Source: Pseudomonadota bacterium (GTDB lineage Bacteria > Desulfobacterota > Desulfobaccia > Desulfobaccales > 0-14-0-80-60-11). From it: a stretch of DNA of 35,603 bases. Of this stretch, positions 3,048 to 35,400 are shown piece after piece. Where the stretch lies: the NCBI GenBank assembly GCA_018897875.1, contig JAHIKF010000008.1, positions 1 through 35,603 on the forward strand, read 5' to 3'. Position 1 is the stretch's first letter; every line of letters begins with the position of its first letter. Under the pieces are notes generated by a model, which saw nothing but the letters and a program-made list of their open reading frames with translations, made no database searches and was not told where the DNA came from. Position numbers and translations under genes: made by a program.

Positions 3048-3617
3048 CTAAGAAATTAGTGTAGCGGTTTTATGCTCCTCCTCATCCTTGCCGGGGGGAT
3101 TGGTCCAGGCCGACCTGGGCAACGCTTGGGGGACTGGCGGGTTATGTACAAAGCGTTCCGGATTAGCGGCGTAAGCAGCCTGCAGGACTTCCTGCCAAGC
3201 CGCAATGACGGTCTCGTGACGGTCTCGGTGCGGTGGTAATGCACGGTCTCCGGAGTTCATAAGGCGATAGCATAGTGGCGGTGTAGGGTGGTGTACCAGG
3301 GAATAAACGTGCGGCAAAACCTCCAGCTAACCTCCAGGGAGCCATCCAAAAAACCGAATAATATAGACCTCACTATGCACCTGGTAGCATGTACCTGCCC
3401 TCTGTACGTACCTCAAATAAATAAAATTGGTAGTCGAGATCAGCTTGCCATGATCGACAATTATCACCTTACCCGGAAAAATGCCAGATAATATCCGCAT
3501 ATCTTGCACTAACATCTGTAGGGAGGATAGGACCTCACCCGCCGGGGACACCGGCACCCTGAGATGCGCCCCCAGACCTCCCTCCCGGAACGATAAATCT
3601 ACGGCGCACAGGGCCAC
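3048..3617 (-). pseudogene. Degenerate DDE transposase (integrase-core type) remnant
   Basis: ORF 3048..3317 ends with ...HETVIAAWQEVLQAAYAANPERFVHNPPVPQALPRSAWTNPP. This is the typical C-terminal tail of rve-type transposases (..VL..AY..HPERFV..P..P.LP...WIN.P). The upstream pieces (VIIVDHGKLISTTNF...) lie in other frames, which implies frameshifts and decay. Confidence 0.55.
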
Positions 3618-3840
3618 TCACAGCCCCGCCACGGCCCGCAAAGGGGGACCCAAGGGGAAGTTACAGGGGGGCCTGTGAAATTCTTAAATCACCCCTGCCA
3701 GCCCCGCCAACCGGCCACATTTTGCTTATAAAATTTTTAGACCTGGGTCGCATCTTGGGGGGGCATTTTCTGCTGGGTTTTTCCCTGGGGAAAAAAACCA
3801 ATGAATGATTTTTTGATAAAAATTGCCGGCCTTGGCATTT

Positions 3841-4470
3841 AGCATGAGGGGGGTGCCGGAGTCCCTTTCCCTTTCCGTGTTCCCGGCTGTGGGGCAGCAG
3901 TACCCCTCTCATCCAGGCCAGGGCAGGAAGGGCCGGGCCGGTCGCTGCTGTACCGTGGCGCGGGGGCGCTGGGTGAAGGGGCGTGGGGGTCCAGGCAGGG
4001 CAGGCTCAGGCAGCCACGAGTACAGGCACAGCGCAGAGCAAGCATGGACAAGGCCAGCAAGGGCACCCCGCGGGGCGGCTGGGCCTGACCGGCGGGGACG
4101 GGGTGGTGGCCGGTTCGTTGCGCTCCGGTGGTGGTGGCTCCGGTAGGGGGCAGGGGCCGCGGCAGCCCCAGGGTGACCACGCGTGGGCGTGGGTGCGTGG
4201 GCGCAGGAGGGGGTGTCCTGGCGCTGGGCCAGGGATCGGTGGTTGATGAGTACACATGGTGCGGGGTGCGCGTCAGGAGGGGCAGGGCCGGCGCCTGGCG
4301 GGGCGCCAGAGGCCGGCGGGCAAGAGGCAGGATAGGGCCAGGGGACGGCCAATCACTTCAGGGCGGGCCTCTCATGGGTGCAGGTGGCGGCGGGCCCCAC
4401 ATGGCCGCGGCGGGCCGAGGGAGACGCTGGTGGTACGCCTGCGCTCTGGGCGCAAGGCTTGGGTTAGCGA
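3841..4470. other. Very GC-rich, strongly G-over-C skewed (plus strand) island without credible coding frame; multiple G-quadruplex motifs
   Basis: ORFs are open in all six frames, and they encode only Pro/Gly/Arg/Ala-rich low-complexity strings. There are repeated GGGCAGG-type motifs. Canonical G3+N1-7 x4 motifs occur at 3962-3989 and 4185-4213. The island is flanked by much more AT-rich sequence. Confidence 0.6.
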
Positions 4471-4479
4471 ACCATCATG

Positions 4480-4512
4480 TCCGACATTGACGGTATAATT
4501 TACAATGTCGGA
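4480..4512. repeat. Perfect 10-bp inverted repeat TCCGACATTG-N13-CAATGTCGGA with TATAAT in the spacer
   Basis: Read directly from the sequence: the arms are 4480-4489 and 4503-4512, and TATAAT lies at 4494-4499. It could be an operator or a stem-loop at the edge of the GC-rich island. Confidence 0.5.
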
Positions 4513-4740
4513 TGACTTTTATTGCAGATATGAAAAATATCTCAACTACCAATTTTTTTTATTTAAGGTGCTGAGGGCAGATAGCGCCACCCCATACCAA
4601 GGCTGATCAAAGTGGGCACTATGGTTTCTTATCATGCCCGGAGATGGTATGTTCATGTGGCCATGGCCTTTCCCCTGGTGCACCGCTACCGGGCGCTGCT
4701 GGCCGGGGGGTCATAGGCTTCCCAGAAATGTGCCATCTAC

Positions 4741-4927
4741 TCGCCGAGAATCGGGTAGGCCCGAGAATTGAGTGCGAAAATAAGATTTCTTCAAAAAAAT
4801 GTGTTATCTTGTGCCCGTACTGGTCCCTACGAGAAGAACTGGCTTCGATAAAAGGGTCGGTTAGGAGCCTCCCCTCGGGCCAAGAGGTCCAAAAAACCTC
4901 GTTGGGACAGAAACAGCTATGGACGCG
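4741..4927 (+). promoter_or_regulatory. Left copy of the duplicated operon leader, with a sigma54-like -24/-12 core
   Basis: It is similar to the reverse complement of 35227-35400. The 18-nt block CGAGAAGAACTGGCTTCG (4830-4847) and the 22-nt block TTGGGACAGAAACAGCTATGGA (4902-4923) are identical in both copies, with 54 vs 53 nt between them. The core TGGGAC-N-..-AGCT has GG(4904-5)-N10-GC(4916-7). The ACP start lies 60 bp downstream. Confidence 0.55.
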
Positions 4928-4986
4928 GCATAATCTCGCCTTAGAAGTTTTACATTGGCCAATTCGAAAAATCAGGATAGACGCAT

Positions 4987-5313
4987 ATGGAGGATCACCT
5001 GAAAAACGGCGCTTCCCGCATAGATAAAGCGCAAAAATCGATCAGTATCCCTGGGCGCGAAGAGATTATTGCCATCCTGAACAAGATTTTGGAAGAGGAC
5101 TTTGAGATCGATCCCTCCATATTGAAGCCTGAGGCCTCCCTCCGTGATGATCTTGACCTCGATAGTTTAGACGGAGTCGACCTCGTAGTCGCCATTGAAA
5201 AGAAGTTTCGATTCCGCGTGGATGAGGAAGAAGCCAGGTCAATTCGCACCTTAAATGATATTTATGAATCCGTAGACCGCCGTCTCCGACAAATCGCCGA
5301 AGAACAGCCCTGA
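4987..5313 (+). CDS. Acyl carrier protein (phosphopantetheine-binding)
   Basis: It has the DLDLDSLDGVDLVVAIE motif containing the Ser attachment site. It is a small acidic helical protein with a ~25-aa N-terminal extension, so the start is uncertain. Confidence 0.85.
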   Translation: MEDHLKNGASRIDKAQKSISIPGREEIIAILNKILEEDFEIDPSILKPEASLRDDLDLDSLDGVDLVVAIEKKFRFRVDEEEARSIRTLNDIYESVDRRLRQIAEEQP

Positions 5314-5354
5314 GTGGCTAATGCATCAATTTAAATTTAGAGTTTAGGCCGAAG

Positions 5355-6323
5355 ATGCAAACCCAAGGTGGTACTTCCCGGCAAATAAATCGCTGGACTG
5401 GTAGGACCAGGGGGGGGTATCTCGGCAACTGGATATTTGTTAATTTACTCCGAGTCGGCGGTCCATGGCTCGGCTATTTCTTTTTAGTTCCAGTAACTTT
5501 CTATTATCTCCTTTTCGCATCTCAGGCTGTCAAGGCATCTCAAACTTATTTACGGCGACTGGGTTATAAGCTCGAGTCCGGGTTTGAGCGGTGGTGGCTC
5601 ACGTACAAGCATTTTTACTCCTTTGGACAAAGCCTCTTGGATCGCATTGCCATCATTGCAGGAAATGCCTCAAGATATGCCTTTGTGTTTGAAGGACAAC
5701 ATCATATAGAAACCGCCTTGGCCGAGGGAAAGGGGGTTCTTATCATCAGCGCTCATTTCGGGAACTGGCAGGCAGCAGCTCATCTTTTAGGCACATTGAA
5801 CGTGCCCGTGCATATTGTTGCTTATGATAACGAGGTGGCGCCTATCAACCAACTCTTTGCCAAGGCCTTAAAGAAAAGGCTTTTTTCTGTTATTTCCCTG
5901 GACAATGACGCTGCCAGTTTAGAGATTATAACCGCATTGAAGCGGGGGGAAATTGTCGCTATGCACGCGGATAGAAGCATCGGTGATAAGCATAGTGTGC
6001 GGCTAAATTTTTTAGGGTCCCCAGCCAATTTCCCTTCCGGTCCTTACACTGTGGCGGCGCTTAGTGGCGCTCCCCTTATCCATACCTTTGCCGTGAGACG
6101 GCAAGTTTGCTCCTATCATCTTTATGCCTATCCTTCCCAGCAGCTGGCTTTTGGCAGTCGCCAGGACCGGCCCAAACAATTGGAGCAATGGGTTTCATTG
6201 TTTGTCCAGCGACTGGAAGCGCATCTAAAAAGTTATCCTTTCCAGTGGTGCAACTTTTATGAGTTCTGGGAAGGACCGCTCTCCCCCTCTTCTTTGAGGA
6301 AAGGACACCTTGAGAAAGAATAA
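5355..6323 (+). CDS. LpxL/HtrB-like lysophospholipid (lipid A-type) acyltransferase family protein (ApeD-like)
   Basis: It has N-terminal TM segments and an ISAHFGNWQ motif (HxxxxD/E-type acyltransferase box). Its length and architecture match LPLAT/LpxL-family members found in Ape-type clusters. Confidence 0.8.
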   Translation: MQTQGGTSRQINRWTGRTRGGYLGNWIFVNLLRVGGPWLGYFFLVPVTFYYLLFASQAVKASQTYLRRLGYKLESGFERWWLTYKHFYSFGQSLLDRIAIIAGNASRYAFVFEGQHHIETALAEGKGVLIISAHFGNWQAAAHLLGTLNVPVHIVAYDNEVAPINQLFAKALKKRLFSVISLDNDAASLEIITALKRGEIVAMHADRSIGDKHSVRLNFLGSPANFPSGPYTVAALSGAPLIHTFAVRRQVCSYHLYAYPSQQLAFGSRQDRPKQLEQWVSLFVQRLEAHLKSYPFQWCNFYEFWEGPLSPSSLRKGHLEKE

Positions 6324-7647
6324 AGTCTTACTGATTTCTCCTAATACGGAAACGGCTCCCATGCCTGTTTATCCGCTCTCCCTGGCGAGGCTGGCCAGGG
6401 CGGTTGAAACCAGAGGAGATCAGGTCAGGCAATTTGACCTTCTGGTTCATGGGAACCATCAGTTGCCTGGAGTTCTGCAAGAGTATCAGCCTAATCTGGT
6501 AGCCCTCTCGCTACGCAACCTTGATAATCTCGACACCACGGCCTATCGCTCTTACCTCTCGAGTTATCGGGAAATTATGAACATTATCTGCTCGCATACC
6601 CAGGCCCCCGTGGTCTTGGGAGGTAGTGGCTTTTCCCTGCTGCCCCACGAGTTGCTCCAGCGTTTGGATGGCAACCTCGGGGTAATCGGGCCGGGAGAGG
6701 GAGCCTTGAGCGCCATTCTTCAGGCGCTGGATGAAGGTGCAAGTTCCTTTCCCCAGATTCTTAACGGCACTGAATACAATGATGGCGCTTTTCAGAGCCG
6801 GCATGAACCGGAATTGGTGGAATACTATTGGCGCTTTGGTGGCATGATTGGCCTTCAAACCAAGAGAGGTTGTCCTCGTCACTGTTCCTACTGCACTTAC
6901 CCTCTGATCGATGGCAACCGAACCAGGTATGCTGAAATACCTGCGTTAGTAGAGGAGATCGAACTCCTGGTCCGGAAAATGGGAGTAACCTATTTTTACT
7001 TTGTTGATTCGGTCTTTAACCAGGACCGAGAGCATGAGTTGGCGTTCGCCGAGGAAATTCTCAGGCGCGATCTGGCGATTAGATGGTGTGCCTTTTTTGC
7101 CCCCTCCGGACTTGACCGGGAATATCTGAAAGTTCTTAAGAAAAGTGGGCTCACCCACGTGGAATTCGGAACTGAGGCCATGTGTGACCGAATGCTCTCT
7201 TCCTATAAAAAAGGATTCAACACTGCAGAGGTTGTCCACAATTCCAGCCTGGCCAATGAACTCGGGCTTCATGTTTGCCACTATCTTCTCTTCGGCGGGC
7301 CGGGGGAGGCGCCGGATACCGTCCGGGAGACCTTGACCCATGCAAGGAAGCTTTCAGATTGCGTATTCTTCCCTTTCGTGGGGGTGCGGATTTACCCCGG
7401 TACAGACGTATACTTGCAGGCCTTGAATGAAAATCAGGTTCAGGTGGATAGCGATTACTTTGCTCCCATATTTTACAATCCAGAGGGCTTTGCACGCGAG
7501 GCCATTTGGGAAATGTTGCGCCGCGAGACCGAAGGTTTGACTAACTGGCTCTTCCCGTCTAAGTATGAAGACATCAGCAGAATCTTGAAACGGTTGCGGC
7601 AGCGAGGATTGAAAGGTCCGCTCTGGGAGTATTTGCTGCAAAACTAA
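6310..7647 (+). CDS. B12-binding-domain radical SAM protein (class B rSAM)
   Basis: The N-terminus is a Rossmann-like B12-binding region (KVLLISPNTE...VALSLRNLDN). A CxxxCxxC cluster motif, RGCPRHCSYCTYP, lies at 6871-6894. The TTG start overlaps the upstream stop by 14 nt. Confidence 0.88.
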   Translation: MRKNKVLLISPNTETAPMPVYPLSLARLARAVETRGDQVRQFDLLVHGNHQLPGVLQEYQPNLVALSLRNLDNLDTTAYRSYLSSYREIMNIICSHTQAPVVLGGSGFSLLPHELLQRLDGNLGVIGPGEGALSAILQALDEGASSFPQILNGTEYNDGAFQSRHEPELVEYYWRFGGMIGLQTKRGCPRHCSYCTYPLIDGNRTRYAEIPALVEEIELLVRKMGVTYFYFVDSVFNQDREHELAFAEEILRRDLAIRWCAFFAPSGLDREYLKVLKKSGLTHVEFGTEAMCDRMLSSYKKGFNTAEVVHNSSLANELGLHVCHYLLFGGPGEAPDTVRETLTHARKLSDCVFFPFVGVRIYPGTDVYLQALNENQVQVDSDYFAPIFYNPEGFAREAIWEMLRRETEGLTNWLFPSKYEDISRILKRLRQRGLKGPLWEYLLQN

Positions 7648-7652
7648 GGGGA

Positions 7653-8087
7653 TTGAAAGATTTGAACTTTCAACTGGAAGAACTTCTGCCGCATCGACAC
7701 CCCATGCTGATGCTGGATAGCATTCTTGAGGCCAGCACTGGCCGCCTGTTGGCGGAAAAGGTTTTTCAGCCTGATGATTATGGAGTGTCAGAGGGCCACG
7801 TTCTGGCAGGCGCACTTATCGAAACCATGGCTCAGGCTGTGGCTGCCATTCAGGGTTTGGCGGCGGCATCTCGGGGAGACCTGCCTCCTAAAGGGATGCT
7901 GGTAGGCGTGGAAGGACTTACGGTGTTGGCGCCGGTGAATTTAGGTCGGCACCTCGGAATTCTCGTGGAGATCACTCGACAATTGCGTCCCTTTATCATG
8001 GCTGACGGTTCCATTTTTCAGGACGGAACTTTAATAGCCAAAGGGTGTCTAAAGTTTTTCGTCGAGGGCGGCCCCAATGAGGCTTAG
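7653..8087 (+). CDS. Hotdog-fold 3-hydroxyacyl-ACP dehydratase (ApeI-like)
   Basis: It has the LPHRHPMLMLD N-terminal motif typical of ApeI/FabA-Z-like dehydratases, and its size of 144 aa fits a hotdog fold. Confidence 0.8.
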   Translation: MKDLNFQLEELLPHRHPMLMLDSILEASTGRLLAEKVFQPDDYGVSEGHVLAGALIETMAQAVAAIQGLAAASRGDLPPKGMLVGVEGLTVLAPVNLGRHLGILVEITRQLRPFIMADGSIFQDGTLIAKGCLKFFVEGGPNEA

Positions 8088-8544
8088 ACGAGGCCGCAGA
8101 CCCAAAGGTAGGTACCTGGAACACCAGGTTCCAGTCCGGGTCAGATTCAATGAAGTGGATTCTCTAAGCATTGTTTGGCACGGGCATTTCCTCAAATATT
8201 TTGAAGATGGCCGTTGTGGCTTTGGGGAGCGCTACGGCATCGGTTATTTGGACCTGCTCAAAGCCGGGCTCTTGGTTCCCGTGGTTCACGCCTCCTGCGA
8301 CCATTTTGAGCCAGCCAGGTTTGGCGATGAATTAATCGTCACCACCAGGCTCTATGAACTGGAAAGCTCCAAGATTTTCTATTATTATGAGGTGAGCCGG
8401 GCATCCGATGGCTCCATCCTGGCTGCCGGCAGGACTATCCAGGCCTTCCTGGACCAGGAACTTAACCTTATTCTCACCTTGCCCGACTATATGAGGTCAT
8501 TCTACGAGCGCTGGAAAGACCACATGCTGGTGTCCGATGGCTGA
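8077..8544 (+). CDS. YbgC/4HBT-family acyl-CoA/ACP thioesterase (ApeK-like)
   Basis: It has VRVRFNEVDSLSIVWHGHFLKYFE (the catalytic Asp region of 4HBT-class thioesterases). The ATG overlaps the upstream gene by 11 nt. Confidence 0.85.
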   Translation: MRLRRGRRPKGRYLEHQVPVRVRFNEVDSLSIVWHGHFLKYFEDGRCGFGERYGIGYLDLLKAGLLVPVVHASCDHFEPARFGDELIVTTRLYELESSKIFYYYEVSRASDGSILAAGRTIQAFLDQELNLILTLPDYMRSFYERWKDHMLVSDG

Positions 8545-9721
8545 ACCTTGCGCAATCATAGGTCTGGACCTGATAAATGCCCTGGGGGCAGGCCCGGATG
8601 CGGTTTGGGACGAGATGATGGCATATACTTGCGGTATCCGGCCTCTTAATCGTTTCGACCACGGTAGATACCGGTCCGATATGGCCGCGGAGATCCCCGG
8701 GCCCTTGCTGGCCCAACTTCGGGATGAGGCGGGGGAAAGGCATTTCTCATTAGCATACAGCATAGCCAGACGCGCGGTCCATGGAGCCTTGGAAGCAGCA
8801 TTTGGGGAACAGAGAAGCAACACCCCTCGCCGGGTAGGCCTGGTGTTGGCCACGACCAAGGGGGATATCCCGGAGTTTGAACGCCAGGTCCAGAACCGGG
8901 AAGTTCCCGCCAAAGGACGCTACAATCCTTACCTTCTGGCCCTGGAACTGGCTCGAGACCTGAAGCTTGAGGGTCCGGTGCTGGCAGTTTCAGGGGCGTG
9001 TGCTACCGGACTCCTGGCAATGATCCATGCCGTTCGCCTGGTCCAAAGGGGGGGCGCGGAAGCGGTAGTAGCTGTGGGAGTAGACGTTCTGTCGGATTTT
9101 GTCCTCTCCGGTTTTAGCAGCGTTGGCGCTCTGGCCCCTGAACCATGCCGCCCATATGACGAAAAGCGAAACGGCCTTTCCCTGGGTGAAGGTGCCGGCG
9201 CGGTAGTCCTATCGCCCCGGGGAGCTTTCCCTCAAAAGGAATTGGCTTTGATCAGCGGTTGGGGAGTTGCTAATGACGCCCGGCACATTACCGCCCCTTC
9301 GCCCACCGCCAACGGTTTGATCCAGGCCCTGCGTCAGACCATGGCTATGGCCTGCTTAGAAGTGGACGAAGTGCATTACCTCAACGCTCACGGCACCGGC
9401 ACCATTTATAATGACGCCATGGAGGCCAGGGCAATTCACCAGGTTTTTGGCGAATCCCCGCCGCCAGTAAGTTCCATGAAAGGATATTTCGGACATACCC
9501 TGGGTGCTGCAGGTATAATCGAGGCCGTTTTAACGGTCGTAGCGTTGAGGCGCAAGACTGTTCCCGCCTCCCTTGGCCTGGAACACCCAGGGGCAGACAT
9601 CCCCATTCAGCCTCTAAGAACTCACCTCCACCGAACCCCCTTGACCCATGCCCTTACCATTAAAAGCGGCTTCGGTGGCATTAACGTGGCCTTGTCCCTA
9701 AGCGCCTTGCCTTTGCTATGA
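8537..9721 (+). CDS. Beta-ketoacyl-ACP synthase (KS, catalytic)
   Basis: A Cys-His-His triad context is present: AVSGACATGLLA, NAHGTGT, GYFGHTLGAAG. Confidence 0.92.
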   Translation: MAEPCAIIGLDLINALGAGPDAVWDEMMAYTCGIRPLNRFDHGRYRSDMAAEIPGPLLAQLRDEAGERHFSLAYSIARRAVHGALEAAFGEQRSNTPRRVGLVLATTKGDIPEFERQVQNREVPAKGRYNPYLLALELARDLKLEGPVLAVSGACATGLLAMIHAVRLVQRGGAEAVVAVGVDVLSDFVLSGFSSVGALAPEPCRPYDEKRNGLSLGEGAGAVVLSPRGAFPQKELALISGWGVANDARHITAPSPTANGLIQALRQTMAMACLEVDEVHYLNAHGTGTIYNDAMEARAIHQVFGESPPPVSSMKGYFGHTLGAAGIIEAVLTVVALRRKTVPASLGLEHPGADIPIQPLRTHLHRTPLTHALTIKSGFGGINVALSLSALPLL

Positions 9722-10539
9722 GTTCATCAATGGTCATTTCCTTGTTCGGCTATATTGATGCCACCGGTTGGGGTGGCAAGGAAGGGTCACACCGGTGGGA
9801 CCATTCTCAGGGCCAGTTGGCACAGGCGCTGCGATGGCGGATGGTTTCCGGAAGTGCCCACGATCGGTTTGGGCGCATGGATCTTCTGTCGAAGTATGTA
9901 AGTGTCGCGGTGGAAATGTTGGGTCTCCCCTTGCTTGGGAAACAGGATCTCCGTCTAGAGACGGCGATGGTTATGGGCACTATGGTTGGGTGCTATGGGG
10001 CGGACCTGGATTTCTATCGGGGGATCCTTCAGGGGGATGGCCCTTCACCTACCATGTTCGCCTACACCCTGCCCACCATTGCCCTGGGCGAAGTCGCGAT
10101 CCGCCACCGCCTGGGAGGGGCCAGTTACTGCTTTATGGCCGGCGCAGACAGCGGATTATTGGCCCTTTGGGAGAGCGTCAAGTTGTTGCAAGCCGGCGAA
10201 TGCCAGAAGTGCGTTTGTATAATGGCAGACGTCTTGTCCCAGCATGCTGAGATGATAGCCAGGAACATAGATCCAGCGGGGAAAGCCCTGACAGAATACG
10301 CTTACGCTTTTCTACTGGAGCGCCATGGCCATGCGCAAGCATGCGAACACCCCTCCATGGCCAGGGTCGCTATCACTTCTGGTGCCGATGGAACTGACTC
10401 CACTGAATCCTGGAAAGTTCCAGATAGCCTGATAGGCTTATTGAGGGAGGGAAGACCCGGGCGCCTTGATCTGGCTTCTCCTCCGGCTTCCGGCATAAAG
10501 GAGATTCTTTCAATTATTCGCTGTTCTCCAGTAATTTAA
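9718..10539 (+). CDS. KS-like protein lacking the active-site Cys (chain-length-factor-like partner, ApeC-like)
   Basis: It has thiolase-fold N-terminal similarity (PSPTMFAYTLPTIALGEVAIRHRLGGASYCF). The position of the nucleophile reads MAGADSG, and the HGTGT/GH motifs are absent. An ATGA overlap links it to the upstream KS. Confidence 0.7.
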   Translation: MSSSMVISLFGYIDATGWGGKEGSHRWDHSQGQLAQALRWRMVSGSAHDRFGRMDLLSKYVSVAVEMLGLPLLGKQDLRLETAMVMGTMVGCYGADLDFYRGILQGDGPSPTMFAYTLPTIALGEVAIRHRLGGASYCFMAGADSGLLALWESVKLLQAGECQKCVCIMADVLSQHAEMIARNIDPAGKALTEYAYAFLLERHGHAQACEHPSMARVAITSGADGTDSTESWKVPDSLIGLLREGRPGRLDLASPPASGIKEILSIIRCSPVI

Positions 10540-10549
10540 AAGGCACTCA

Positions 10550-10807
10550 ATGCATCAACTTATAAGCGATTTAAAGGTAAAAATTGTTGATATTCTGAAT
10601 TTGGAAGATGTCTCCCCAGAAGACATTGACGAGGCTGCGCCTCTTTTTGGAGAAGGCTTGGGGTTAGATTCTTTGGATGCCCTTGAATTAGTGGTACTGG
10701 TGGAAAAAGACTACGGTATTAAGATCACCGATATCGAAGTAGGACGGCAGGCTTTTGCTTCCGTCAATACGCTGGCCCGGTTTATCCTTGAAAAACAGGG
10801 GAAATAA
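10550..10807 (+). CDS. Acyl carrier protein
   Basis: It has the GLGLDSLDALELVVLVE phosphopantetheine attachment motif and is 85 aa long. Confidence 0.92.
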   Translation: MHQLISDLKVKIVDILNLEDVSPEDIDEAAPLFGEGLGLDSLDALELVVLVEKDYGIKITDIEVGRQAFASVNTLARFILEKQGK

Positions 10808-12036
10808 TGTCCTCCCGCATCATCGTCACCGGCATGGGTGTTGTCTCCGCCCTGGGCTGGACGCCGACCGCGATCTGGCAAGCTATGGAAGCAGGTTATA
10901 GCGGCCTTGGACCCTTGACCCTGTTCGCCTCCCCCCGCTGCGGACATTTCCCGGTGGGGCAGGTCCAGGGTGACCCAGCTCAGTCCAGCGGCCTGAGCCG
11001 GGGCTCCCGCAGCGACCATCTTGCGGCCTACGCCGCCAGTATGGCCTTTTTGGATGCCGGGTTAGACAAGGTTCCTGCCACCATCAGGAAAAGCATCGGC
11101 CTGGTTCTGGGTGGCACCACTGGCGGGATGCTGGACACCGAGTCTTTCTTCTTGAGAGTAGTCCGGGAAGGTTTCGTTGAAGGGTCCCTGCTGCGGCACC
11201 ACGAATGTTGCCACCCAGCCAATGCCACAGCTGAACTTCTGGGGCTCAATGGCTTCCGTGCTACTCAATCCACCGCTTGCAGCTCGGGACTTATGGCTAT
11301 TGCCACTGCCTGTGACGTCCTTAAAGCTGGTGAAGCCGAAATCATGCTGGCTGGAGGAGTAGACTCTTTAACCAGGCTCACTTTAAATGGTTTCGCCTCT
11401 TTGCTGATAATTGCCCCTGATGGCTGTCGTCCTTTCGATGCCAGACGCACCGGCATGAGCCTGGGGGAAGGAGCTGCGGTCCTGGTCTTGGAAAGGGAAG
11501 AAACGGCCTTGGCAAGGAAGGCGCCCATGCTGGCTGAAATAGGTGGATTCGCCCATACTTGTGAGGCTCATCATCCTACTGCACCCACCCCTGATGGTGC
11601 CGGAATCTACCAGGCTATGGCCTTGGCCTTGCAGCGCGCCGGTCTCACCCCGGCCGACGTGGATTATGTCAATGCTCATGGCACCGGCACCATCGACAAC
11701 GACCTGGCCGAAGGACGGGCCTTGAGCCGCCTGTTTGGTGAGGCGCCCCCCCCCATCTCATCTACCAAGCGCTTTTTCGGACACACCCTGGGTGCCGCCG
11801 GGGCCATCGAGACCGTGGTGTGCATTTTAGCCTTGCAGAATCAAAGGGTGCCAGGAACTCTTGGACTGCTCCACCCCGATCCGAAGATACCCATCAAACC
11901 GCTGCTTGCCCCCGTGAGCGCCACAGTCAAAACCGCGCTCAATAACTCTCTGGGCTTCGGGGGGGCCTGCTCCTCCTTGGTTATCGGCCAGGTGGGCTTT
12001 GGAAGGAATGGAGCCGTGCAAGATGACCGACCCTGA
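10807..12036 (+). CDS. Beta-ketoacyl-ACP synthase (FabF-like, catalytic)
   Basis: Active-site contexts are QSTACSSGLMAIA, NAHGTGT and FFGHTLGAAG. A TAATG overlap links it to the upstream ACP. Confidence 0.92.
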   Translation: MSSRIIVTGMGVVSALGWTPTAIWQAMEAGYSGLGPLTLFASPRCGHFPVGQVQGDPAQSSGLSRGSRSDHLAAYAASMAFLDAGLDKVPATIRKSIGLVLGGTTGGMLDTESFFLRVVREGFVEGSLLRHHECCHPANATAELLGLNGFRATQSTACSSGLMAIATACDVLKAGEAEIMLAGGVDSLTRLTLNGFASLLIIAPDGCRPFDARRTGMSLGEGAAVLVLEREETALARKAPMLAEIGGFAHTCEAHHPTAPTPDGAGIYQAMALALQRAGLTPADVDYVNAHGTGTIDNDLAEGRALSRLFGEAPPPISSTKRFFGHTLGAAGAIETVVCILALQNQRVPGTLGLLHPDPKIPIKPLLAPVSATVKTALNNSLGFGGACSSLVIGQVGFGRNGAVQDDRP

Positions 12037-13159
12037 CCGCGACGCGCTGGCCATCCTGGGCTGCGGCTCCATTCGCCCTGATAGAAACCTGGAACTGTTG
12101 CCTTTGCCGGCTGAGATGGGGGGAGGGGCGGTCTACGCCCACCTGTGCCCCCAATCCCTGGGCAAGGGAGTGATTCCCTCGGGGGTTTATAGAAAGGTGG
12201 GGCGAGCTCAGAAGATGGTGCTGCTGGCCGCACATAAGGCTCTGGAGGAATTCCCGCTCTCCCCATCGGCTCAGGATCAATCTGCGGTGTGCCTGGGGAC
12301 CGGGTTTGGCGAACTGGGAGAGACCTTGCTTTTCCTGGAAAACCTGGTGCGCCTTGAGGAGCGGGAGCCCAAGCCGACCCGGTTCGCCAACTCGGTTCAC
12401 AATTCCCTGGCTTCCCAGGTGGCGATTAATTTCGGCCTCAAAGGCGAAAACCATACCCTTACCCAGGGACCGATATCCTTCGAATTGGCCCTGTGGCAGG
12501 CCGCAGTGTTGCTGCAAACCGGCCGGGCTGGCCATGTTTTGGTCTGCGGGGTCGATGAACTCACGCCTTTCCTTGGCTTTCTCGGGGTCGAGTGCGGGTT
12601 TTGGGGCAAAGAGGATCCCCCTGACCTTCAGGAGATAGAAAGAACCGGCCACAACCACCGGCCCCGCCCCGGAGAAGGGGCGGCCGCTTTCGTGCTGGGA
12701 CTCAGAGGTGCGGCTCCTGCAAAAGGCCTTCTTCCCTGTGTTCATACCATCAAAGTGCAGCCCTTGGAATTGCGGCAGGGGCAGATTATTGATCCGATGG
12801 CGGAACTAAAGTTCGTAATGGATGCCCTTGCCGATAAGGGCGTCTCCCTCGGGAACCTCGACCTCATTATCCTTGGGGCTAATTGCTCGGGCCAGTTGGA
12901 GACGCTGTATCAACCAATATTACAGCTTATTTTTCAGGATATTAGGAAAGAGATTGGCGTTATCTCTTACAAGACTTTATGGGGCGAATTTTCCACCACC
13001 CCGGCACTGGGTCTGGGCCTGGCGGTGGACATCCTCCGGACCGGGAAGATTCCTCCCTGGGTTATTCCTGAGAAAAAGCCTCCTCCGGTTCTTAAGAATA
13101 TCCTCATGTACCAGGTGTCGCCCCTGGGGTTCCATAGTTTGTGCCTGGTAAGGATATGA
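12023..13159 (+). CDS. KS-like chain-length-factor-type protein (no active-site Cys)
   Basis: It has a thiolase-like N-terminal half (FANSVHNSLASQVAINFGLKGENHTLTQGPISFELAL) without the catalytic Cys/His/His. I prefer ATG 12023 because GGAG lies 9 nt upstream. The track ORF begins at TTG 11999. Confidence 0.7.
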   Translation: MTDPDRDALAILGCGSIRPDRNLELLPLPAEMGGGAVYAHLCPQSLGKGVIPSGVYRKVGRAQKMVLLAAHKALEEFPLSPSAQDQSAVCLGTGFGELGETLLFLENLVRLEEREPKPTRFANSVHNSLASQVAINFGLKGENHTLTQGPISFELALWQAAVLLQTGRAGHVLVCGVDELTPFLGFLGVECGFWGKEDPPDLQEIERTGHNHRPRPGEGAAAFVLGLRGAAPAKGLLPCVHTIKVQPLELRQGQIIDPMAELKFVMDALADKGVSLGNLDLIILGANCSGQLETLYQPILQLIFQDIRKEIGVISYKTLWGEFSTTPALGLGLAVDILRTGKIPPWVIPEKKPPPVLKNILMYQVSPLGFHSLCLVRI

Positions 13160-13938
13160 GCCGGTTCCAGATGGCAACCATCGCAGTTGTCGTCCTTGCG
13201 ACGGCCACCGGCGCCTTGGCCCCGGATCCTCTCCGGTGGTGGCTTTGGGGGGGACTTGCCGCTGCGTACCTGGCGCTGGTGGGTTTGGGGGTAACATTTA
13301 GCAGTTGGGGGCTTTTCGGACCGGCTATCTGCCTCGGCAGGCCGGGCGGCATGCGCGTAAGTCTCACATTTGATGACGGACCGGATCCCGCCAGCACTCC
13401 CCGATTGCTGGAAGTTTTGGAGCAACACCAGGTCAAGGCGGCATTTTTCTTGATCGGCCGGCATGCGGAAAGGCACCGCGCCTTGGTGCAGGCCATAGCC
13501 GACAAAGGGCATCTGGTGGGGAATCACACCTACCGCCATGCCTGGTGGACCAATTTTTTATGGGGCGACAGATTAGATCGGGAAATTCAGCGGGCCCAGC
13601 GGGTGTTCCAGGACATCCTGGGAACTGCGCCCCGTTTTTTCCGCAGCCCCATGGGCCTGACCAACCCACAGTTATTCGGAGCCCTGAAACGTATCGGCCT
13701 CCGGTTCGTGGGTTGGGATCTTCGAGGTCTGGACCAGCGGGCTGGCGCGGCGGCACCGGTTATTCGCCGGCTCGCGCACCGATGCCGGGACGGCAGTATA
13801 ATCCTGCTGCACGATGGGGGAGCCAATCCGCAAGTCCTGGTGGACATCGTCCATACCATCATTCCGGCCCTGCGTAATCAAGGTTTTACTTTTGTGCGGC
13901 TTGATGAATCCCTATCCCTGCCTGAAAAGGAAAACTAA
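13156..13938 (+). CDS. Membrane-anchored polysaccharide deacetylase (NodB homology domain)
   Basis: NodB motifs are present: LTFDDGPD and VGNHTYRH. There are N-terminal TM helices. ATG 13156 forms an ATGA overlap with the upstream stop, and GTG 13141 is an alternative start. Confidence 0.88.
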   Translation: MSRFQMATIAVVVLATATGALAPDPLRWWLWGGLAAAYLALVGLGVTFSSWGLFGPAICLGRPGGMRVSLTFDDGPDPASTPRLLEVLEQHQVKAAFFLIGRHAERHRALVQAIADKGHLVGNHTYRHAWWTNFLWGDRLDREIQRAQRVFQDILGTAPRFFRSPMGLTNPQLFGALKRIGLRFVGWDLRGLDQRAGAAAPVIRRLAHRCRDGSIILLHDGGANPQVLVDIVHTIIPALRNQGFTFVRLDESLSLPEKEN

Positions 13939-13942
13939 TTTA

Positions 13943-14698
13943 ATGCAAGTAATCCGTACCTGGTTCCTGATAGCTTGCCTGGTTGGGCTAATTTTAGGAA
14001 ACACCGCGAGTGCGGGCGCGGCTGAAAAGCCCGGTCGGAAAGGTCTGGCCAAGGAAACAGCCGCAGTGAGGAAATCCGCGCACAAGCTCTCCCCAGAGGA
14101 ACTGGCCCAGCTTCTGGAGCGTATTGAAAAGAAGCTGGGCAAAATCCAATCACTCTACACCGATTTTATTCAGGAAAAGCACCTGGAAATTTTCACCCGG
14201 CCGGCAGTAGCTAAGGGGCGGTGCATTTTCCAAAACCCCGGAAAGATGCGGTTTGAAATCATCGAGCCATTCCAGTCAGTCCTCATCGTCAACGACAAGG
14301 CCGTCGCTAAATATGAACTGGTAGAAGGTAAGTGGCAAAAACTCCAATCCAGCCAGCAGCAACTGGTGCTGTTGATCATCGACCACATCACTTTGTGGTT
14401 GCAGGGGCGGCTGCGAGGTAAAGAGGATATTTATGCAATTTCGGCGGAAAAGGGGGAAACCACCAAAGTGATCCTGACCCCCAGGAACGAGGGGTTCAGA
14501 AAACACCTGACAGCCATTGAGCTGGTTATGAACCGGGATGAATCCGGGATCAGGCAGATCATTCTCCGGGAACCAGGGCCAGATTACACGGTGGTCACTT
14601 TTATCAACGACCGGCGGAACCTGGCGATACCCCAGGAAGTATTCAACACCAATAGTCCCGAGCCCCCCCCGATTCCGGATGGATTGGCTGCACCATGA
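13943..14698 (+). CDS. LolA-like outer-membrane lipoprotein carrier family protein (ApeL-like)
   Basis: It has a signal peptide (MQVIRTWFLIACLVGLILGNTASAGA). The pattern after it is LolA-like: LYTDFIQEKHLEIFTRPAVAKGRCIFQNPGKMRFEI. The ATG start at 13943 lies 5 nt after the upstream stop. Confidence 0.7.
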   Translation: MQVIRTWFLIACLVGLILGNTASAGAAEKPGRKGLAKETAAVRKSAHKLSPEELAQLLERIEKKLGKIQSLYTDFIQEKHLEIFTRPAVAKGRCIFQNPGKMRFEIIEPFQSVLIVNDKAVAKYELVEGKWQKLQSSQQQLVLLIIDHITLWLQGRLRGKEDIYAISAEKGETTKVILTPRNEGFRKHLTAIELVMNRDESGIRQIILREPGPDYTVVTFINDRRNLAIPQEVFNTNSPEPPPIPDGLAAP

Positions 14699-15381
14699 TC
14701 CGGGCCTTTCTTTTTCTTATGCTCCTCGCCCAGTTGGCTCCTGGTTGCTGCTCGGTGTCCAAACAGCCTGGCCAGCCTCTGGAAGACCCGGTCCTGTCCC
14801 AAGGGCTGCGTCAGAACCTGGAGAGGCTTTATCCCCATTCCTTCCAAGTCAGCCATCGGTGCATTCTCGAGGCTGCCGGCCGGCAGTTTGTCCTGGAAGG
14901 TTATCTTCGCGTCAATGAACCCGAGAGCTTCAGGCTCTTAGCCAAAGGGGACATGGGTGGCACCGTCTTTGAACTCCAGCAAGTTAAAGGGGAGAAGCCC
15001 GAGGTTGTCAAAAATCCGGTTTCGCTTCGACCTTCGTGGCTTTTGGAGGGAGCGGCCCGAGATATCTCCGTCCTTTATTTTCGGTCGCCACAACCTCAAT
15101 CGCGCCTGGTCCGGTATCAGACCGGGGACATAGGTCTGGCACAGGAAGTTAAGCCTGGTCTTTGGGAAGAATTTCACTTCCAGCCTGAAACCGGCCGCTT
15201 GCTTGCCTATATGCTAATTCAAGGGGGGGAACCGTTTTATCGGGCTGACTTCGGATATTTCGAAGCCTTGTCGCCAGGGGGGCGTGAAGTGCCGCGCACA
15301 ATCACTATCGTCGATCACCGCATGCACTATCGCCTGACTGTCAGAGTCCTGGAAATTGGCGAGATCACCGGTAATCCCTGA
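14695..15381 (+). CDS. Probable lipoprotein, DUF3261-like (ApeN-like position)
   Basis: It has a signal sequence with Cys (MIRAFLFLMLLAQLAPGCC) and an ATGA overlap with the LolA-like gene. The family assignment rests mainly on synteny, since DUF3261 follows LolA/MMPL genes in Ape-type clusters. Confidence 0.5.
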   Translation: MIRAFLFLMLLAQLAPGCCSVSKQPGQPLEDPVLSQGLRQNLERLYPHSFQVSHRCILEAAGRQFVLEGYLRVNEPESFRLLAKGDMGGTVFELQQVKGEKPEVVKNPVSLRPSWLLEGAARDISVLYFRSPQPQSRLVRYQTGDIGLAQEVKPGLWEEFHFQPETGRLLAYMLIQGGEPFYRADFGYFEALSPGGREVPRTITIVDHRMHYRLTVRVLEIGEITGNP

Positions 15382-15394
15382 ATCAAAGGAAATC

Positions 15395-15769
15395 ATGATG
15401 AACATGTGGTCTGACCTTCAGGATTCCCTTGTCACCATCGATCCTGGAATTGAACCTGGCACCTGGGAGGCCAAATTCTGTTTTGCCCCCAGCCTTTCCC
15501 TGTTCAGGGGACATTTTCCCGACAACCCCCTCCTGCCCGGGGTAATGCAAGTGGAAATGGCGCACCTGGCCATGGTCAGAATCACCGGAGCGAATTATCG
15601 GATTGTCGGGGTCAAGAAGGCCAAGTTCACCGGACAAGTTTTCCCCGGCGACCAGATCACGGTCCGCCTGGCAGCCAAAGACCGGGAGGATTACCTCCAG
15701 GTCAGGGACCAGCTTAGTGTGGGGGAAAAAAGGGTGGGGAGCGTCATCCTGGACTTGCAGGCATCATAA
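15395..15769 (+). CDS. fabZ: FabZ-like 3-hydroxyacyl-ACP dehydratase (ApeP-like)
   Basis: The FRGHFPDNPLLPGVMQVEMAHLA motif carries the catalytic His and Glu of FabZ-type hotdog dehydratases. An AAAGGA Shine-Dalgarno sequence lies 5 nt upstream of ATG 15395. Confidence 0.85.
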   Translation: MMNMWSDLQDSLVTIDPGIEPGTWEAKFCFAPSLSLFRGHFPDNPLLPGVMQVEMAHLAMVRITGANYRIVGVKKAKFTGQVFPGDQITVRLAAKDREDYLQVRDQLSVGEKRVGSVILDLQAS

Positions 15770-15778
15770 GGTTTCTAA

Positions 15779-17020
15779 ATGAGCATCGAGCCCCAGCCAG
15801 CCTTTAAAAAATTGGAATCTTCCCTCCGCCTGAAACAATTAATGGCCAGCCATTTTTATGAGCTGGATGAGGCCGCGCGGCGCGGGAGCCACAAAATTGC
15901 CTGGTGCTCCAGTGTGGGGCCCGCGGAACTATTGCGCAGCTTGGGCTTCCTGGTGTATTTCCCCGAAAACCACGCAGCCCTTTTGGGGGCCACCCGGAAG
16001 GCCACCGATTACATCCCCGCCGCCAACGCCATCGGCTATTCTCCGGAGATTTGCAGCTACCTGACCAGTGACATCGGTGCCTGCATCATGGGAGAAACTC
16101 CCCTGTCCAGAGCTTATCCCGGTATTACCCGGGTGCCGCCTCCGGACGTGCTGGTGTACAATACCAATCAATGCCGCGCCGTCAAGGATTGGTTCCAGTG
16201 GTACTCTCGAAAATTCCGGGTTCCCTGTCTGGGCGTGCAAAGCTTTCGCCAAATGGATGAGGTTACCACCCTGCATGTGGCGGCAATAAGCACGCAATTA
16301 CAGCAGTTAATTCCCCCGCTCCAGGAAATATCGGGCACCCGCTTCGACATCGACCGCCTGCGGGAAACCATAGAGCTTTCCCGGCAGTGCAGTGAGCTCT
16401 GGGGGCAGGTACTCGAGACTGCGGCTCATCGGCCCAGCCCTCTCACCTTTTTCGATGGCACCATCCACATGGGCCCCGCAGTTATTGCCCGGGGGACTCA
16501 ATCCGCAGTGGATTACTATATTTTTTTACTGGCCGAACTCCGACAGCGTATCGAGGCCGGGGTGGCTGCGGTGAATCACGAAAATTGTCGTATTTATTGG
16601 GAAGGAATGCCTATCTGGGGAAAACTCCGGGAACTGGCCGCCCTCTTCCTCAGACTCAAGACCTGCGTTGTCGCCTCTACCTATTGTAATTCTTGGATCT
16701 TCTCAGATCTGGACCCCAGAGACCCATTTGAATCCATGGCCCGGGCTTACACCGAATTGTTCATCACGCGAGCCGATGCCTGCAAAGAACGATATATTAA
16801 GCAAATGGTTGAGTTCTATCGGATTGACGGCATCCTGTTTCACGAAGCCAAGACCTGCCCCGACAATTCCAACAGTCTCTACGGGATGCCCCAGCGCCTG
16901 TATCAGCAACTTGGCATTCCCACAGTGGTAATCCATGGGGACCTGAATGACCTCAGGCTTTTCAGCGAAGAGCAAGCCGTGACACGCCTGGAGGCATTTA
17001 TCGAACAGGTCCAGGGTTAA
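15779..17020 (+). CDS. 2-hydroxyacyl-CoA dehydratase / benzoyl-CoA reductase BcrBC-HgdAB family (HGD-D) protein, single subunit
   Basis: The family pattern runs along the whole length: KIAWCSSVGPAELLRSLGFLVYFPENH...CRIYWEGMPIWGKLRELAALF...IDGILFHEAKTCPDNS...LGIPTVVIHGDLNDLR. Conserved Cys residues could serve as Fe-S ligands. No second HGD-D subunit is adjacent. Confidence 0.8.
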   Translation: MSIEPQPAFKKLESSLRLKQLMASHFYELDEAARRGSHKIAWCSSVGPAELLRSLGFLVYFPENHAALLGATRKATDYIPAANAIGYSPEICSYLTSDIGACIMGETPLSRAYPGITRVPPPDVLVYNTNQCRAVKDWFQWYSRKFRVPCLGVQSFRQMDEVTTLHVAAISTQLQQLIPPLQEISGTRFDIDRLRETIELSRQCSELWGQVLETAAHRPSPLTFFDGTIHMGPAVIARGTQSAVDYYIFLLAELRQRIEAGVAAVNHENCRIYWEGMPIWGKLRELAALFLRLKTCVVASTYCNSWIFSDLDPRDPFESMARAYTELFITRADACKERYIKQMVEFYRIDGILFHEAKTCPDNSNSLYGMPQRLYQQLGIPTVVIHGDLNDLRLFSEEQAVTRLEAFIEQVQG

Positions 17021-17025
17021 GAGAC

Positions 17026-17808
17026 ATGAGCGAACTTTACCTGGGCATCGATCTCGGGGCTTCGGCCACCAAGGCGGTTCTTCTCGATAGCCGCCGGCAG
17101 ATTGTCGCCAGGACGGTAGTGGCTACTGGCCTTGATTTCACCCGTGTAGGACAAGAGGTATTGGAGGCCGTCCTCCGACAGGCCGGAGCAGACATGGAGC
17201 ACATCCGGTGCGCCGTGGCCACCGGGTACGGCCGAAAAAATGTGCACTTTCCCTGTCTCAGCAAGACCGAGATCTCCTGCCATGGGCGCGGAGCTTATCA
17301 CTACTTTCCTGAAGCCATCACGGTGGTGGATATTGGCGGCCAGGACACCAAAATCATCAGGCTCGGACCGGATGGCCGTCTCCTCGACTTCCAGATGAAC
17401 CGCAAATGCGCCGCCGGCACGGGCGCTTTCTTGGAAGAGATGGCCCGCCGGCTCGATCTCTCTTTGAGCGAACTGGAGCAACTGGCCGGGCAAAGCCAAC
17501 AGGATGTCAAGCTCGGCTCGTATTGCACGGTCTTTACTTTTACCGAAATCCTGGCCCTGAGCCGCCGTGGGATAGCTGTCCCGGACCTGGTCAAAGCTAT
17601 CTTTAACGCCATTGTCCAACGAGTTACAGAGTTGGGCGTCCTATCCGGCAAGATCGTGGCCACTGGCGGGGTGGTAGCCTACAACCCCACTGTTGCCAAC
17701 CTTCTTGCCAACAGAATCGGCGTTGACCCCCTGATCCCGCCAGAGCCTCAACTTATCGGCGCCCTGGGTGCCGCCCTTTTCGCCTTTGAGGAAGCCGAGC
17801 ATGCATAA
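17026..17808 (+). CDS. BcrAD/BadFG/HgdC-type ATPase (acyl-CoA dehydratase activase)
   Basis: It has an ASKHA fold start (LYLGIDLGASATKAVLLD), then VVDIGGQDTKII, and MNRKCAAGTGAFLE and GSYCTVF (Cys ligands of the bridging [4Fe-4S] cluster in HgdC-type activators). Confidence 0.9.
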   Translation: MSELYLGIDLGASATKAVLLDSRRQIVARTVVATGLDFTRVGQEVLEAVLRQAGADMEHIRCAVATGYGRKNVHFPCLSKTEISCHGRGAYHYFPEAITVVDIGGQDTKIIRLGPDGRLLDFQMNRKCAAGTGAFLEEMARRLDLSLSELEQLAGQSQQDVKLGSYCTVFTFTEILALSRRGIAVPDLVKAIFNAIVQRVTELGVLSGKIVATGGVVAYNPTVANLLANRIGVDPLIPPEPQLIGALGAALFAFEEAEHA

Positions 17809-19189: not shown

Positions 19190-19235
19190 TGTTGGCCTCC
19201 GTGGAGACCGAGAAAAATAGAGGATCGCGGTCATC

Positions 19236-19835
19236 TCACTTAAAATACCGGCCCAACATGAAAATTACGGACTCGACTCCCTTATTGTTATGATTCAATC
19301 CGGCGTTGGAGATGTGATGATACCGTGCAGCCGCGAAAAACGGCAACCCTGAACCAATCATGATTTCGGTGCCGATACCCGCCTGGGGATTGAAATTTAT
19401 CCGCGAGCCCTGCCCCTTCACCTGAAAGTCGGTATAGATAACGCCGATGCCCCCTTCGATATAGGGACGCGTATAGCGGGTGGAGATAAAATCCAGGTAA
19501 TATAAGGCCAGCATCCCCAGTGAGGTCATAAAGCGGGCCTGGGGTGTCAGGCTCGAGCCGATGGTACCCTCTAATTTCCACCGCAACAACTTGGGCGCCG
19601 GGTGATGCCAGACCTTGGCATAATCCCACATGCCAAAGGCCGAGAGTTGCAGGAAGCGGATATCAGACTGGGGCGCAAAAGTGTTGCCATAGATGAGAGC
19701 AGCACCGTAGCGACCGCGCACTTCTTCCTCCTCCGGAGCCTGGCCCGACGCCAGGCCGGAGAAGATTGGAAGAAGCAAGCATGCCAACATTATCGGCAGG
19801 AATAGATGTGCCCGGAAAGGATAGTTCCTAAACAT
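19236..19835 (-). CDS. pagL: PagL-like lipid A 3-O-deacylase / acyloxyacyl hydrolase outer-membrane protein
   Basis: It has a signal peptide, a beta-barrel-like alternating pattern and a C-terminal Phe-rich end. The motif HHISNAG...NKGVE (19272-19316) has His-x-Ser and a Glu 12 residues after the Ser, the same spacing as the PagL His126/Ser128/Glu140 triad. Confidence 0.85.
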   Translation of the reverse strand: MFRNYPFRAHLFLPIMLACLLLPIFSGLASGQAPEEEEVRGRYGAALIYGNTFAPQSDIRFLQLSAFGMWDYAKVWHHPAPKLLRWKLEGTIGSSLTPQARFMTSLGMLALYYLDFISTRYTRPYIEGGIGVIYTDFQVKGQGSRINFNPQAGIGTEIMIGSGLPFFAAARYHHISNAGLNHNNKGVESVIFMLGRYFK

Positions 19836-35206: not shown

Positions 35207-35226
35207 CGAGCCTTTCCTCGGCTCTA

Positions 35227-35400
35227 CGCATCCATAGCTGTTTCTGTCCCAAGGAGGTTTTGCAGCCTCTTTGGCCGAGTAAAATCTCTCAAACGGTCCT
35301 CTTCACGAAGCCAGTTCTTCTCGCAGGTGGCAAAATAGCACAAATTAGGGCGGAAAGTCAATTTTCCCCAGATTTCGAGCATACCAATCCCTCGGCGATC
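35227..35400 (-). promoter_or_regulatory. Right copy of the duplicated operon leader with a sigma54-like -24/-12 core
   Basis: Its reverse complement aligns with 4741-4927. The 18-mer (35306-35323) and the 22-mer (35231-35252) are identical to the left copy. The GG-N10-GC core lies at 35236-35251 on the minus strand, pointing into the minus-strand operon. Confidence 0.55.

Follow-up and report, generated by a model that had tools for sequence, protein, structure and literature searches.

Insertion sequences (ISs) of the IS1380 family, such as ISEcp1 and ISPme1, are known to carry strong outward promoters and to mobilise the DNA at their 3' side by means of a surrogate right end (PMC9330008). 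The retention of an ISEcp1 remnant of about 200 bp, which keeps the promoter upstream of blaOXA-232, has been termed "promoter fixation" (PMC9330008). Here we describe a related situation in a 35,603-nt stretch of DNA (contig JAHIKF010000008.1 of assembly GCA_018897875.1, from an uncultured Desulfobaccales-type bacterium; the whole stretch is hereafter called the window), in which a 30-kb gene cluster is made up of two convergent operons and a copy of the same inverted repeat lies in front of each of them. The repeat is very probably the right-end remnant of an unnamed IS of the IS1380 family. The phenomenon itself is known from ISEcp1 and ISPme1, whereas the IS and its host are new.

A formal local alignment of positions 4664-4927 (plus strand) with the reverse complement of 35472-35227 gave 178 identical columns out of 264 (67.4%). 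The original prediction of a duplicated, inverted leader of about 185 bp, with an identity of 60-70% judged by eye, was therefore borne out, and the homology starts about 75 nt further upstream than it had stated. A repeat search of the window returned the pair as inverted repeats I1 and I2. The two blocks that had been described as perfectly conserved are indeed exact in both copies: the 22-mer TTGGGACAGAAACAGCTATGGA at 4902-4923 (plus strand) and 35231-35252 (minus strand), and the 18-mer CGAGAAGAACTGGCTTCG at 4830-4847 (plus strand) and 35306-35323 (minus strand), separated by 54 nt on the left (4848-4901) and 53 nt on the right (35253-35305). The 22-mer had no further match in the window at up to three mismatches (0 expected, 100 shuffles), and no occurrence of the 18-mer is expected in shuffled sequence. 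Exact runs of 18 and 22 nt are improbable at 67% identity (estimated chance about 0.07 and 0.01, respectively), and the blockiness is therefore real. Each copy is directed at its operon, as had been claimed, with the ATG of the acyl carrier protein (ACP) gene at 4987, 60 nt past 4927, on the left. Conservation at the nucleotide rather than the protein level also held, and the open reading frame (ORF) at 4644-5027 had no Pfam match and lies in a frame different from that of the transposase remnant described below. A third partial copy at 28029-28058 (repeat I5; 30 nt, 80% identity) falls within a ketosynthase (KS) gene and was taken as a chance match. Reading the upstream block as a protein (PGxxGxGxIGxP, in both copies) was rejected, as it is the end of the transposase gene in another frame.

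The identity of the repeat became clear from an intact reference copy of the element at locus L033, which spans 4481-6093 (1613 bp) and contains a single transposase gene at 4551-5885 (444 aa). The transposase matched the NF033539 model "IS1380 family transposase" with 351.9 bits (cutoff 180) and PF13701 with E=4e-123. The terminal repeats of about 15 bp begin with CC; the left one reads CCTGGATTATGCCGC and the right one in L033 GCGGCATAATATCGG (reverse-complemented CCGATATTATGCCGC), the consensus of the right repeat being GCGGCATAATCTCGG and the left-end motif of the IS CCTGGATTATGCCGCAAAAAATGCG. Between the transposase gene and the right end lies a non-coding tail of about 208 nt, right repeat included. 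A perfect target duplication of 5 bp, TCAAT, flanks the intact metagenomic copy L049. We also considered the tail as a target site instead of a part of the IS; the target duplication and terminal-repeat data argue against this. The nearest named plasmid transposases, ISKpn23 and IS1247, are only about 41% identical, and the IS itself is therefore new.

The reference element also moves adjacent DNA. L033 and L036 share a stretch of 2398 nt with 99.96% identity. It comprises the IS and 785 nt of downstream passenger DNA with a PilZ-domain ORF; the unit ends in a surrogate (look-alike) right repeat, GGCGCATAATCTCAG, and each of the two units has its own 5-bp duplication (TTCAA and GTAAC). This active-looking transposition unit is found twice in the closed chromosome OY969108.1 (L033 4481-6878 and L036 1507-3903). 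The element thus resembles ISEcp1 and ISPme1 in having a single DDE transposase gene in about 1.6 kb, CC-starting repeats of about 15 bp, 5-bp duplications, a 3' tail with an outward promoter-like site, and mobilisation of 3' DNA by a surrogate repeat (L033/L036). It differs from them in its transposase (about 41% identity to ISKpn23 and IS1247), in its uncultured Desulfobaccales-type host, and in the genes it is associated with in the window, which are lipid/polyene-like and not resistance genes.

In the left copy, upstream of the ACP operon, the remnant of the element begins within the transposase gene. The last 39-40 codons and the stop codon (TAG, 4714-4716) are present at 4594-4716 on the plus strand, which marks the 5' limit of the left relic; residues 405-443 of the intact L033 transposase matched window 4594-4710 at 77% identity (tblastn, E=3e-12). 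At the DNA level the homology starts at 4606, and window 4606-4938 corresponds to IS positions 1295-1612/1613 with 73% identity over 334 columns. The stop codon is followed by the non-coding 3' tail (about 220 nt, 4717-4939), which closes with the right terminal repeat GCGGCATAATCTCGC at 4925-4939, the IS end. This repeat matches the consensus at 14 of 15 positions and is the inverse of the left repeat of intact copies; in all loci compared, homology between copies ends at its terminus. The ACP 5' untranslated region (UTR) with the ribosome-binding region (4940-4986) is native and not derived from the IS, and it is kept in L006, L007-L009 and L114 despite a diverged or partly deleted IS relic there.

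The right copy, upstream of the glycosyltransferase (GT2) operon, holds 231 nt on the minus strand (35227-35457), including the last 30 nt or so of the transposase gene with the stop codon TAG at 35425-35423. Its identity to the IS is 89.2% across 231 columns and rises to 91% in a part of 217 nt (35443-35227, IS 1385-1601). It ends 12 nt before the IS terminus, so that the last 12 nt of the terminal repeat are gone. Neither DNA nor protein comparison gave a transposase match in 35458-35603, and no further IS match was found elsewhere in the window. A spacer of 246 nt that is not IS-derived (34981-35226, minus strand) separates the relic from the GT2 start codon at 34980. L044 and L045 have a conserved counterpart of the spacer and L046 a partial one. 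The spacer could be a remnant of another element, and would belong to the 5' UTR of the operon if the IS promoter is used; a 79-aa ORF within it (34967-35206), also predicted by the gene caller in L044, had no family match.

Each copy is nearer to the IS (73% on the left, 89-91% on the right) than to the other copy (67%), and the two copies therefore stem from separate IS insertions and not from a duplication within the cluster. This bears on the original prediction that the pair arose by duplication of a dedicated region with promoter, operator and 5' leader, through which a single regulator would control both halves of the cluster. The orientation of the copies towards their operons and a sigma-54 activator gene nearby (1463-2977, Pfam annotation) are in keeping with such an arrangement, as are the blocks themselves, which are exact in the window and decayed in the orthologous relics of relatives and could thus reflect a lineage-specific constraint. 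However, both blocks are conserved parts of the tail throughout the IS family, the same sequence stands before unrelated genes at dozens of loci, and L007-L009 keep the same operon although the blocks are lost. Recombination inside the L114 relic, described below, moreover indicates that patchy identity can come from gene conversion. We consider co-regulation by a duplicated leader very unlikely; the 18-mer and the 22-mer are not operators that evolved for the cluster. From the earlier claim of a promoter one part stood, as the repeat does contain a promoter-like site, TTGACT-18-TATTTT with an upstream TG (35361-35332, minus strand); what did not stand was a leader or operator specific to the cluster.

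The distribution of the tail was followed in two scans. A scan with the motif AAAACNTCNTTGGGACAGAA, which covered a single genome of each species, gave 31 loci, about 11 of which are clear homologues of the whole element; these 11 all come from metagenome-assembled genomes (MAGs) of Desulfobaccales, "Deltaproteobacteria" or Thermodesulfobacteriota. The IS is widespread among Desulfobaccales-type genomes, and intact copies of it occur in MAGs of this type. Some genomes hold several tail copies, each with different downstream sequence, and at several loci the homology extends upstream into the ORF that in L033 is the transposase. A metagenome scan with the motif TTGGGACAGAAAYAGCTATG gave at least 80 loci. 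Among the metagenome loci listed, about 78 copies are homologous to the tail, with at least 54 distinct downstream flanks; the transposase is intact in L049 and L075 only, while in L118 it is full-length in three tblastn pieces. The remaining copies are cut at varied points, many of them near transposase residues 404-428 like the left copy of the window. The genes downstream encode such different products as NorB, a Band 7 protein, rubrerythrin, FtsX, a LuxR regulator, a hydrolase, a MIP (aquaporin) protein, and PilZ, FkbM and WbqC proteins. As these are functionally unrelated, a regulon is ruled out. The occurrence at about 11 MAG loci and at least 54 distinct metagenome loci with unrelated downstream genes is the pattern that the original prediction had itself set against a cluster-specific leader. 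In 40 of 55 loci, the tail has the same orientation as the longest ORF that begins in the 500 nt downstream of it (p=0.001).

Solo tails of this kind share with miniature inverted-repeat transposable elements (MITEs) and repetitive extragenic palindromic (REP) sequences a short, non-coding, multi-copy and intergenic character in many genomes. They differ from both in having a fixed 3' end and a variable 5' truncation, in lacking a pair of terminal inverted repeats, and in that many retain transposase codons. A target duplication was seen at 4 of 46 relic 5' boundaries (0.9 expected by chance), one of the four being an intact IS, and no duplications that would mark transposition from an internal surrogate left end were found at the 5' boundaries of solo tails. 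Because the 5' boundaries are without target duplication, the relics arose by deletion or decay. We therefore rejected an identity as MITE or REP sequences, since the variable boundaries without duplication characterise decay products and not mobilised miniature elements. One subgroup stands apart: L058, L069 and L097/L066 share only the last 50 nt or so of the tail, located behind a different conserved module of about 110 nt. The start of this module partly mirrors the right end (GCATCCAT..ATTTCT), and about 150 nt in total lead from there to the IS right terminus. The subgroup may be a MITE-like derivative mobilised in trans; a target duplication was not found for it.

The relics in the window are old, because they occupy the same positions in relatives of the cluster. 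Contigs with an identical ACP also have an identical leader and are uninformative; in relatives whose neighbouring proteins are 85-87% identical the leader has diverged and is found at the same place. The left relic has orthologues in L006 and L114, and the right relic in L044 (GT2 87% identical) and L045 (79%), both of which share its junction ATGGATGCG|TAGAG. From 35457 to 28177, L044 and the window can be aligned continuously, with 91.5% identity; in L046, a Desulfobaccales MAG, a relic is located further upstream.

The comparison with L114 was incongruent. This locus matches the window at 96% across 2862 nt but differs strongly upstream of 4845, and it is without an insertion of 11-13 nt that is present both in the window and in L006, a more distant locus. 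The pattern suggests that recombination or gene conversion has taken place within the relic. The 18-mer, which corresponds to IS tail positions of about 1505-1522, just past the predicted transcription start, is decayed in L006, L114, L044 and L045, and both 18-mers of the window carry C where the IS consensus has T (GAATTGG), a difference of 1 nt. A simple explanation for the identity of the 18-mers may be gene conversion, either with resident IS copies as donors or from one relic to the other; the sequences do not tell this apart from selection. The 22-mer is a subterminal block just inside the terminal repeat and belongs to the best conserved portion of the family, where the match is 90-99% across up to 68 flank-deduplicated copies.

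On these grounds we propose that one IS inserted just upstream of the ACP operon, in the same orientation, and a second one in front of the GT2 operon. Later loss of the transposase genes and of the left ends would have left the tails alone. The 18-mer and the 22-mer would have been inherited as the best conserved parts of the tail in the whole family, and gene conversion may have refreshed them. As far as sequence comparison reaches, the identity of the repeat copies as IS relics and their origin are established.

In the intact IS, an outward sigma-70-type promoter, TTGACT-18-TGcTATTTT, is predicted about 120 nt from the end and would read into the downstream genes. In the right relic this site is preserved at 35332-35361 on the minus strand, with the -35 element TTGACT (35361-35356), a spacer of 18 nt and the TG-extended -10 element TATTTT (35337-35332); its predicted start at about 35325 faces the GT2 operon, and the same site lies at 5947-5976 in intact L033. 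In the left relic, the degraded outward site at 4781-4810 (plus strand) aligns position by position with that of the intact IS, the -35 element being TAAGAT (4781-4786) and the extended -10 element TGtTATCTT (4802-4810) being kept, with a predicted start at about 4817. The motif TGnTAnnnT is likewise kept in diverged copies, in which the inner positions of the -10 element vary (TATTTT, TATCTT, TAGCGT, TAACGT, TACTCT and TAGCTT), with the exception of L045 (TACGTG). If the predicted starts are used, both blocks would fall within an IS-derived 5' UTR, whose length would be about 345 nt for the GT2 operon and about 170 nt for the ACP operon. We infer that read-out from the predicted IS promoter may drive or boost both operons; this is plausible for the right relic with its intact promoter-like site, and less so for the left relic, which has lost the -35 element and retains the extended -10 element alone.

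The closest parallel is the ISEcp1 remnant at blaOXA-232. Here, too, most of the IS is gone, and a right-end fragment (about 230-345 bp) with an outward promoter-like site stands directly before a co-oriented gene. Unlike at blaOXA-232, there are two relics in front of two convergent operons, both are old enough to occur also in relatives with 79-92% identical neighbouring proteins, and the left -35 element is degraded.

Several observations weigh against this interpretation. The promoter was recognised by consensus match alone, with E. coli-like rules assumed for the host, and a consensus scan found no sigma-70 site in the left relic, in which the -35 element is lost and the insertion of 11-13 nt, common to L006 only, follows the -10 element (at about 4811-4823). 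Compared with L033, and with relics included, the transposase C-terminus is conserved at 70-80%, the promoter region at 80-90% and the last 110 nt at 90-99%. The better conservation of the last 110 nt than of the promoter could reflect constraint in active elements (binding of transposase or host factors) or a function at the level of the host. About 17 of 43 testable relics are without the promoter region yet have the last 50-110 nt, and retention of the promoter is therefore not the sole reason why tails persist. The ratio of relics to intact copies is inflated both by the search motif, which lies at the right end, and by breaks of short-read assemblies in repeats. Finally, the window stops 146 nt past the right relic, so that an intact IS may be nearby.

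The conserved terminus also leads to a second promoter hypothesis, in which the 22-mer is an outward sigma-54 promoter at the IS end, with starts at about 4929 (plus strand) and 35225 (minus strand), and depends on an enhancer-binding protein such as that encoded at 1463-2977. Of the 12 positions of TGGCACG-N4-TTGCW, 10 are matched by TGGGACA-N4-TAGCT in the consensus of the family and 9 by the copies in the window, where the 22-mer reads TGG-N9-aGCt; GG at 4904-4905 and GC at 4916-4917 have the correct -24/-12 spacing. The predicted start coincides with the point at which the homology between the window copies ends, the block is found before co-oriented genes even in relics without the sigma-70 site, and the activator gene is adjacent. 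However, the strict pattern TGG-N9-TGCW occurs at chance level in the window and misses the site, in which the T at -14 is replaced by A. A host activator would be required at every insertion site of the IS, no upstream activator palindromes were identified, and the operon is kept both in L006, which is without the -12 half, and in L007, which is without the motif. A sigma-54 promoter at this place is in our view quite unlikely.

A further possibility is that the 110 nt or so following the promoter encode a structured RNA that acts in cis, as a riboswitch or attenuator would, or else a small RNA borne by the IS. Use of the promoter would place both blocks in the transcript, conservation within the element is highest in its last 110 nt, and most copies keep a short hairpin, CCAAAGAGG-N8-CCTCGTTGG. 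The folding results speak against it: the minimum free energy of -23.2 kcal/mol (z=+0.93) is no better than that of shuffled sequences, and the covariation term of RNAalifold amounts to only -0.71 kcal/mol, with four pairs showing any double change. No Rfam match was obtained in the whole window at the gathering score or, for the left copy only, over 4500-5100 at E<=10; a terminator was not found, and the downstream genes are unrelated. A literature search found nothing on IS1380-associated non-coding RNA. We attach hardly any probability to this explanation.

The original prediction had also raised the possibility that the copies mediate inversion or mark the ends of a mobilised unit. The copies are indeed IS ends, but as truncated relics without transposase or left end, and with the right ends pointing inward, they do not delimit such a unit. 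That they are the ends of a composite transposon, or inversion substrates, for the 30-kb cluster would fit the presence of the same IS family in inverted orientation on both flanks, the demonstrable ability of the IS to mobilise adjacent DNA, and the phage or mobile genes just outside the cluster in relatives. However, the right copy also lacks the terminal repeat, and the relics are old and syntenic in relatives. A surrogate terminal repeat was found neither at the convergent junction at about 19189-19236 nor, above chance, elsewhere in the window; the same search gave no match above chance for a surrogate right repeat that would make each operon an IS-mobilised unit. With 67% identity and a longest exact run of 22 nt, the copies would be poor substrates for homologous recombination, which makes inversion unlikely as well. 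The composite or inversion hypothesis as a whole is extremely improbable.

The cluster between the relics (4987-34980) is of an aryl-polyene-like or unusual-lipid type according to Pfam annotation, and its genes include pairs of KS and chain length factor (CLF), ApeI/ApeP-like dehydratases, an MMPL exporter and a phytoene-desaturase-like flavoprotein. The plus-strand operon (4987-19189) encodes ACP, an LpxL-type acyltransferase, a B12-radical-SAM enzyme, FabA-type dehydratases, a thioesterase, ketosynthases, a second ACP, a deacetylase, LolA, an ApeI-like dehydratase, a 2-hydroxyacyl-CoA dehydratase with its activase, and a CoA ligase. The minus-strand operon (34980-19236) encodes GT2, an MMPL-acyltransferase-methyltransferase fusion, an amine-oxidase-type flavoprotein, ketosynthases, a ketoreductase, an FAD/CCG oxidase and PagL. 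For the acyltransferase, the nearest homologues (50-55%) are labelled Planctomycetota; for GT2, the closest homologue with a taxon name (77%) is labelled Desulfobaccales. GT2 (34177-34980, minus strand) has 267 aa, as do its closest relatives at 87-92%, while homologues at or below 73-82% mostly have 365-434 aa, most of them with a C-terminal DUF2062 domain (L045, L046). DUF2062 was lost from GT2 in the lineage of the window, where a gap of 160 nt precedes the MMPL gene.

Next to the left relic, a 31-nt inverted repeat (3410-3440/4539-4569, 90% complementary) encloses 1.16 kb that abut the relic. Its interior (about 3800-4490) has a very high G+C content, and no ORF there is convincing. The arm region (4521-4586) is also present in further metagenome contigs, as is a segment of 84 nt (3443-3527). 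The region 3410-4569 is probably another mobile or repeat element. The end of the ORF at 3048-3317 (minus strand), AAYAANPERFVHNPPVPQALPRSAWTNPP, may resemble the C-terminus of an IS481/IS3-type integrase-like transposase, although the ORF had no Pfam match; if it does, a mobile-element graveyard would lie between the sigma-54 activator gene and the cluster. Genes of phage or plasmid type (Prim-Pol/DUF3987 primase, GH108 lysozyme, Amidase_2 endolysin) are found just outside the relics in L007 (564-3122), L044 (194-655) and L045 (3811-4341). The cluster may therefore be located next to or within mobile DNA.

Exact-protein look-ups for sequence beyond 35603 gave no record for GT2 and for the 1307-aa protein, and only a 3.3-kb contig for the KS. 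The contig L002 (JAHIMJ010000101.1, 31.8 kb) would end near the GT2 start, and the window ends shortly past the right relic; such assembly ends near relics fit with breaks at a multi-copy repeat.

Beyond the relic interpretation, the last 110 nt or so might constitute a portable expression module that acts as a leader close to the promoter and is retained by hosts, homogenised by gene conversion and, in this genome, recruited to couple the two operons, perhaps with a terminal sigma-54-type promoter and possibly by means of the adjacent enhancer-binding protein. If true, this would explain the terminal conservation of 90-99% in transposition-dead relics, the relics that persist without the sigma-70 site upstream of co-oriented genes, and the blocks that are exact here yet decayed in orthologous relics. 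We nevertheless regard such a module as unlikely.

For annotation, the assignment of the repeat to an IS removes a false riboswitch or operator lead. Together, the terminal repeats, the consensus of the tail and the duplication of 5 bp provide a signature by which this IS and its many relics in Desulfobaccales-type MAGs can be masked or annotated. The sequence data further point to an environmental, non-clinical case of IS1380-type promoter delivery, together with the capture of 3' DNA. Possibly, a large polyene-like or unusual-lipid cluster in this Desulfobaccales-type bacterium is transcribed from two domesticated IS ends.

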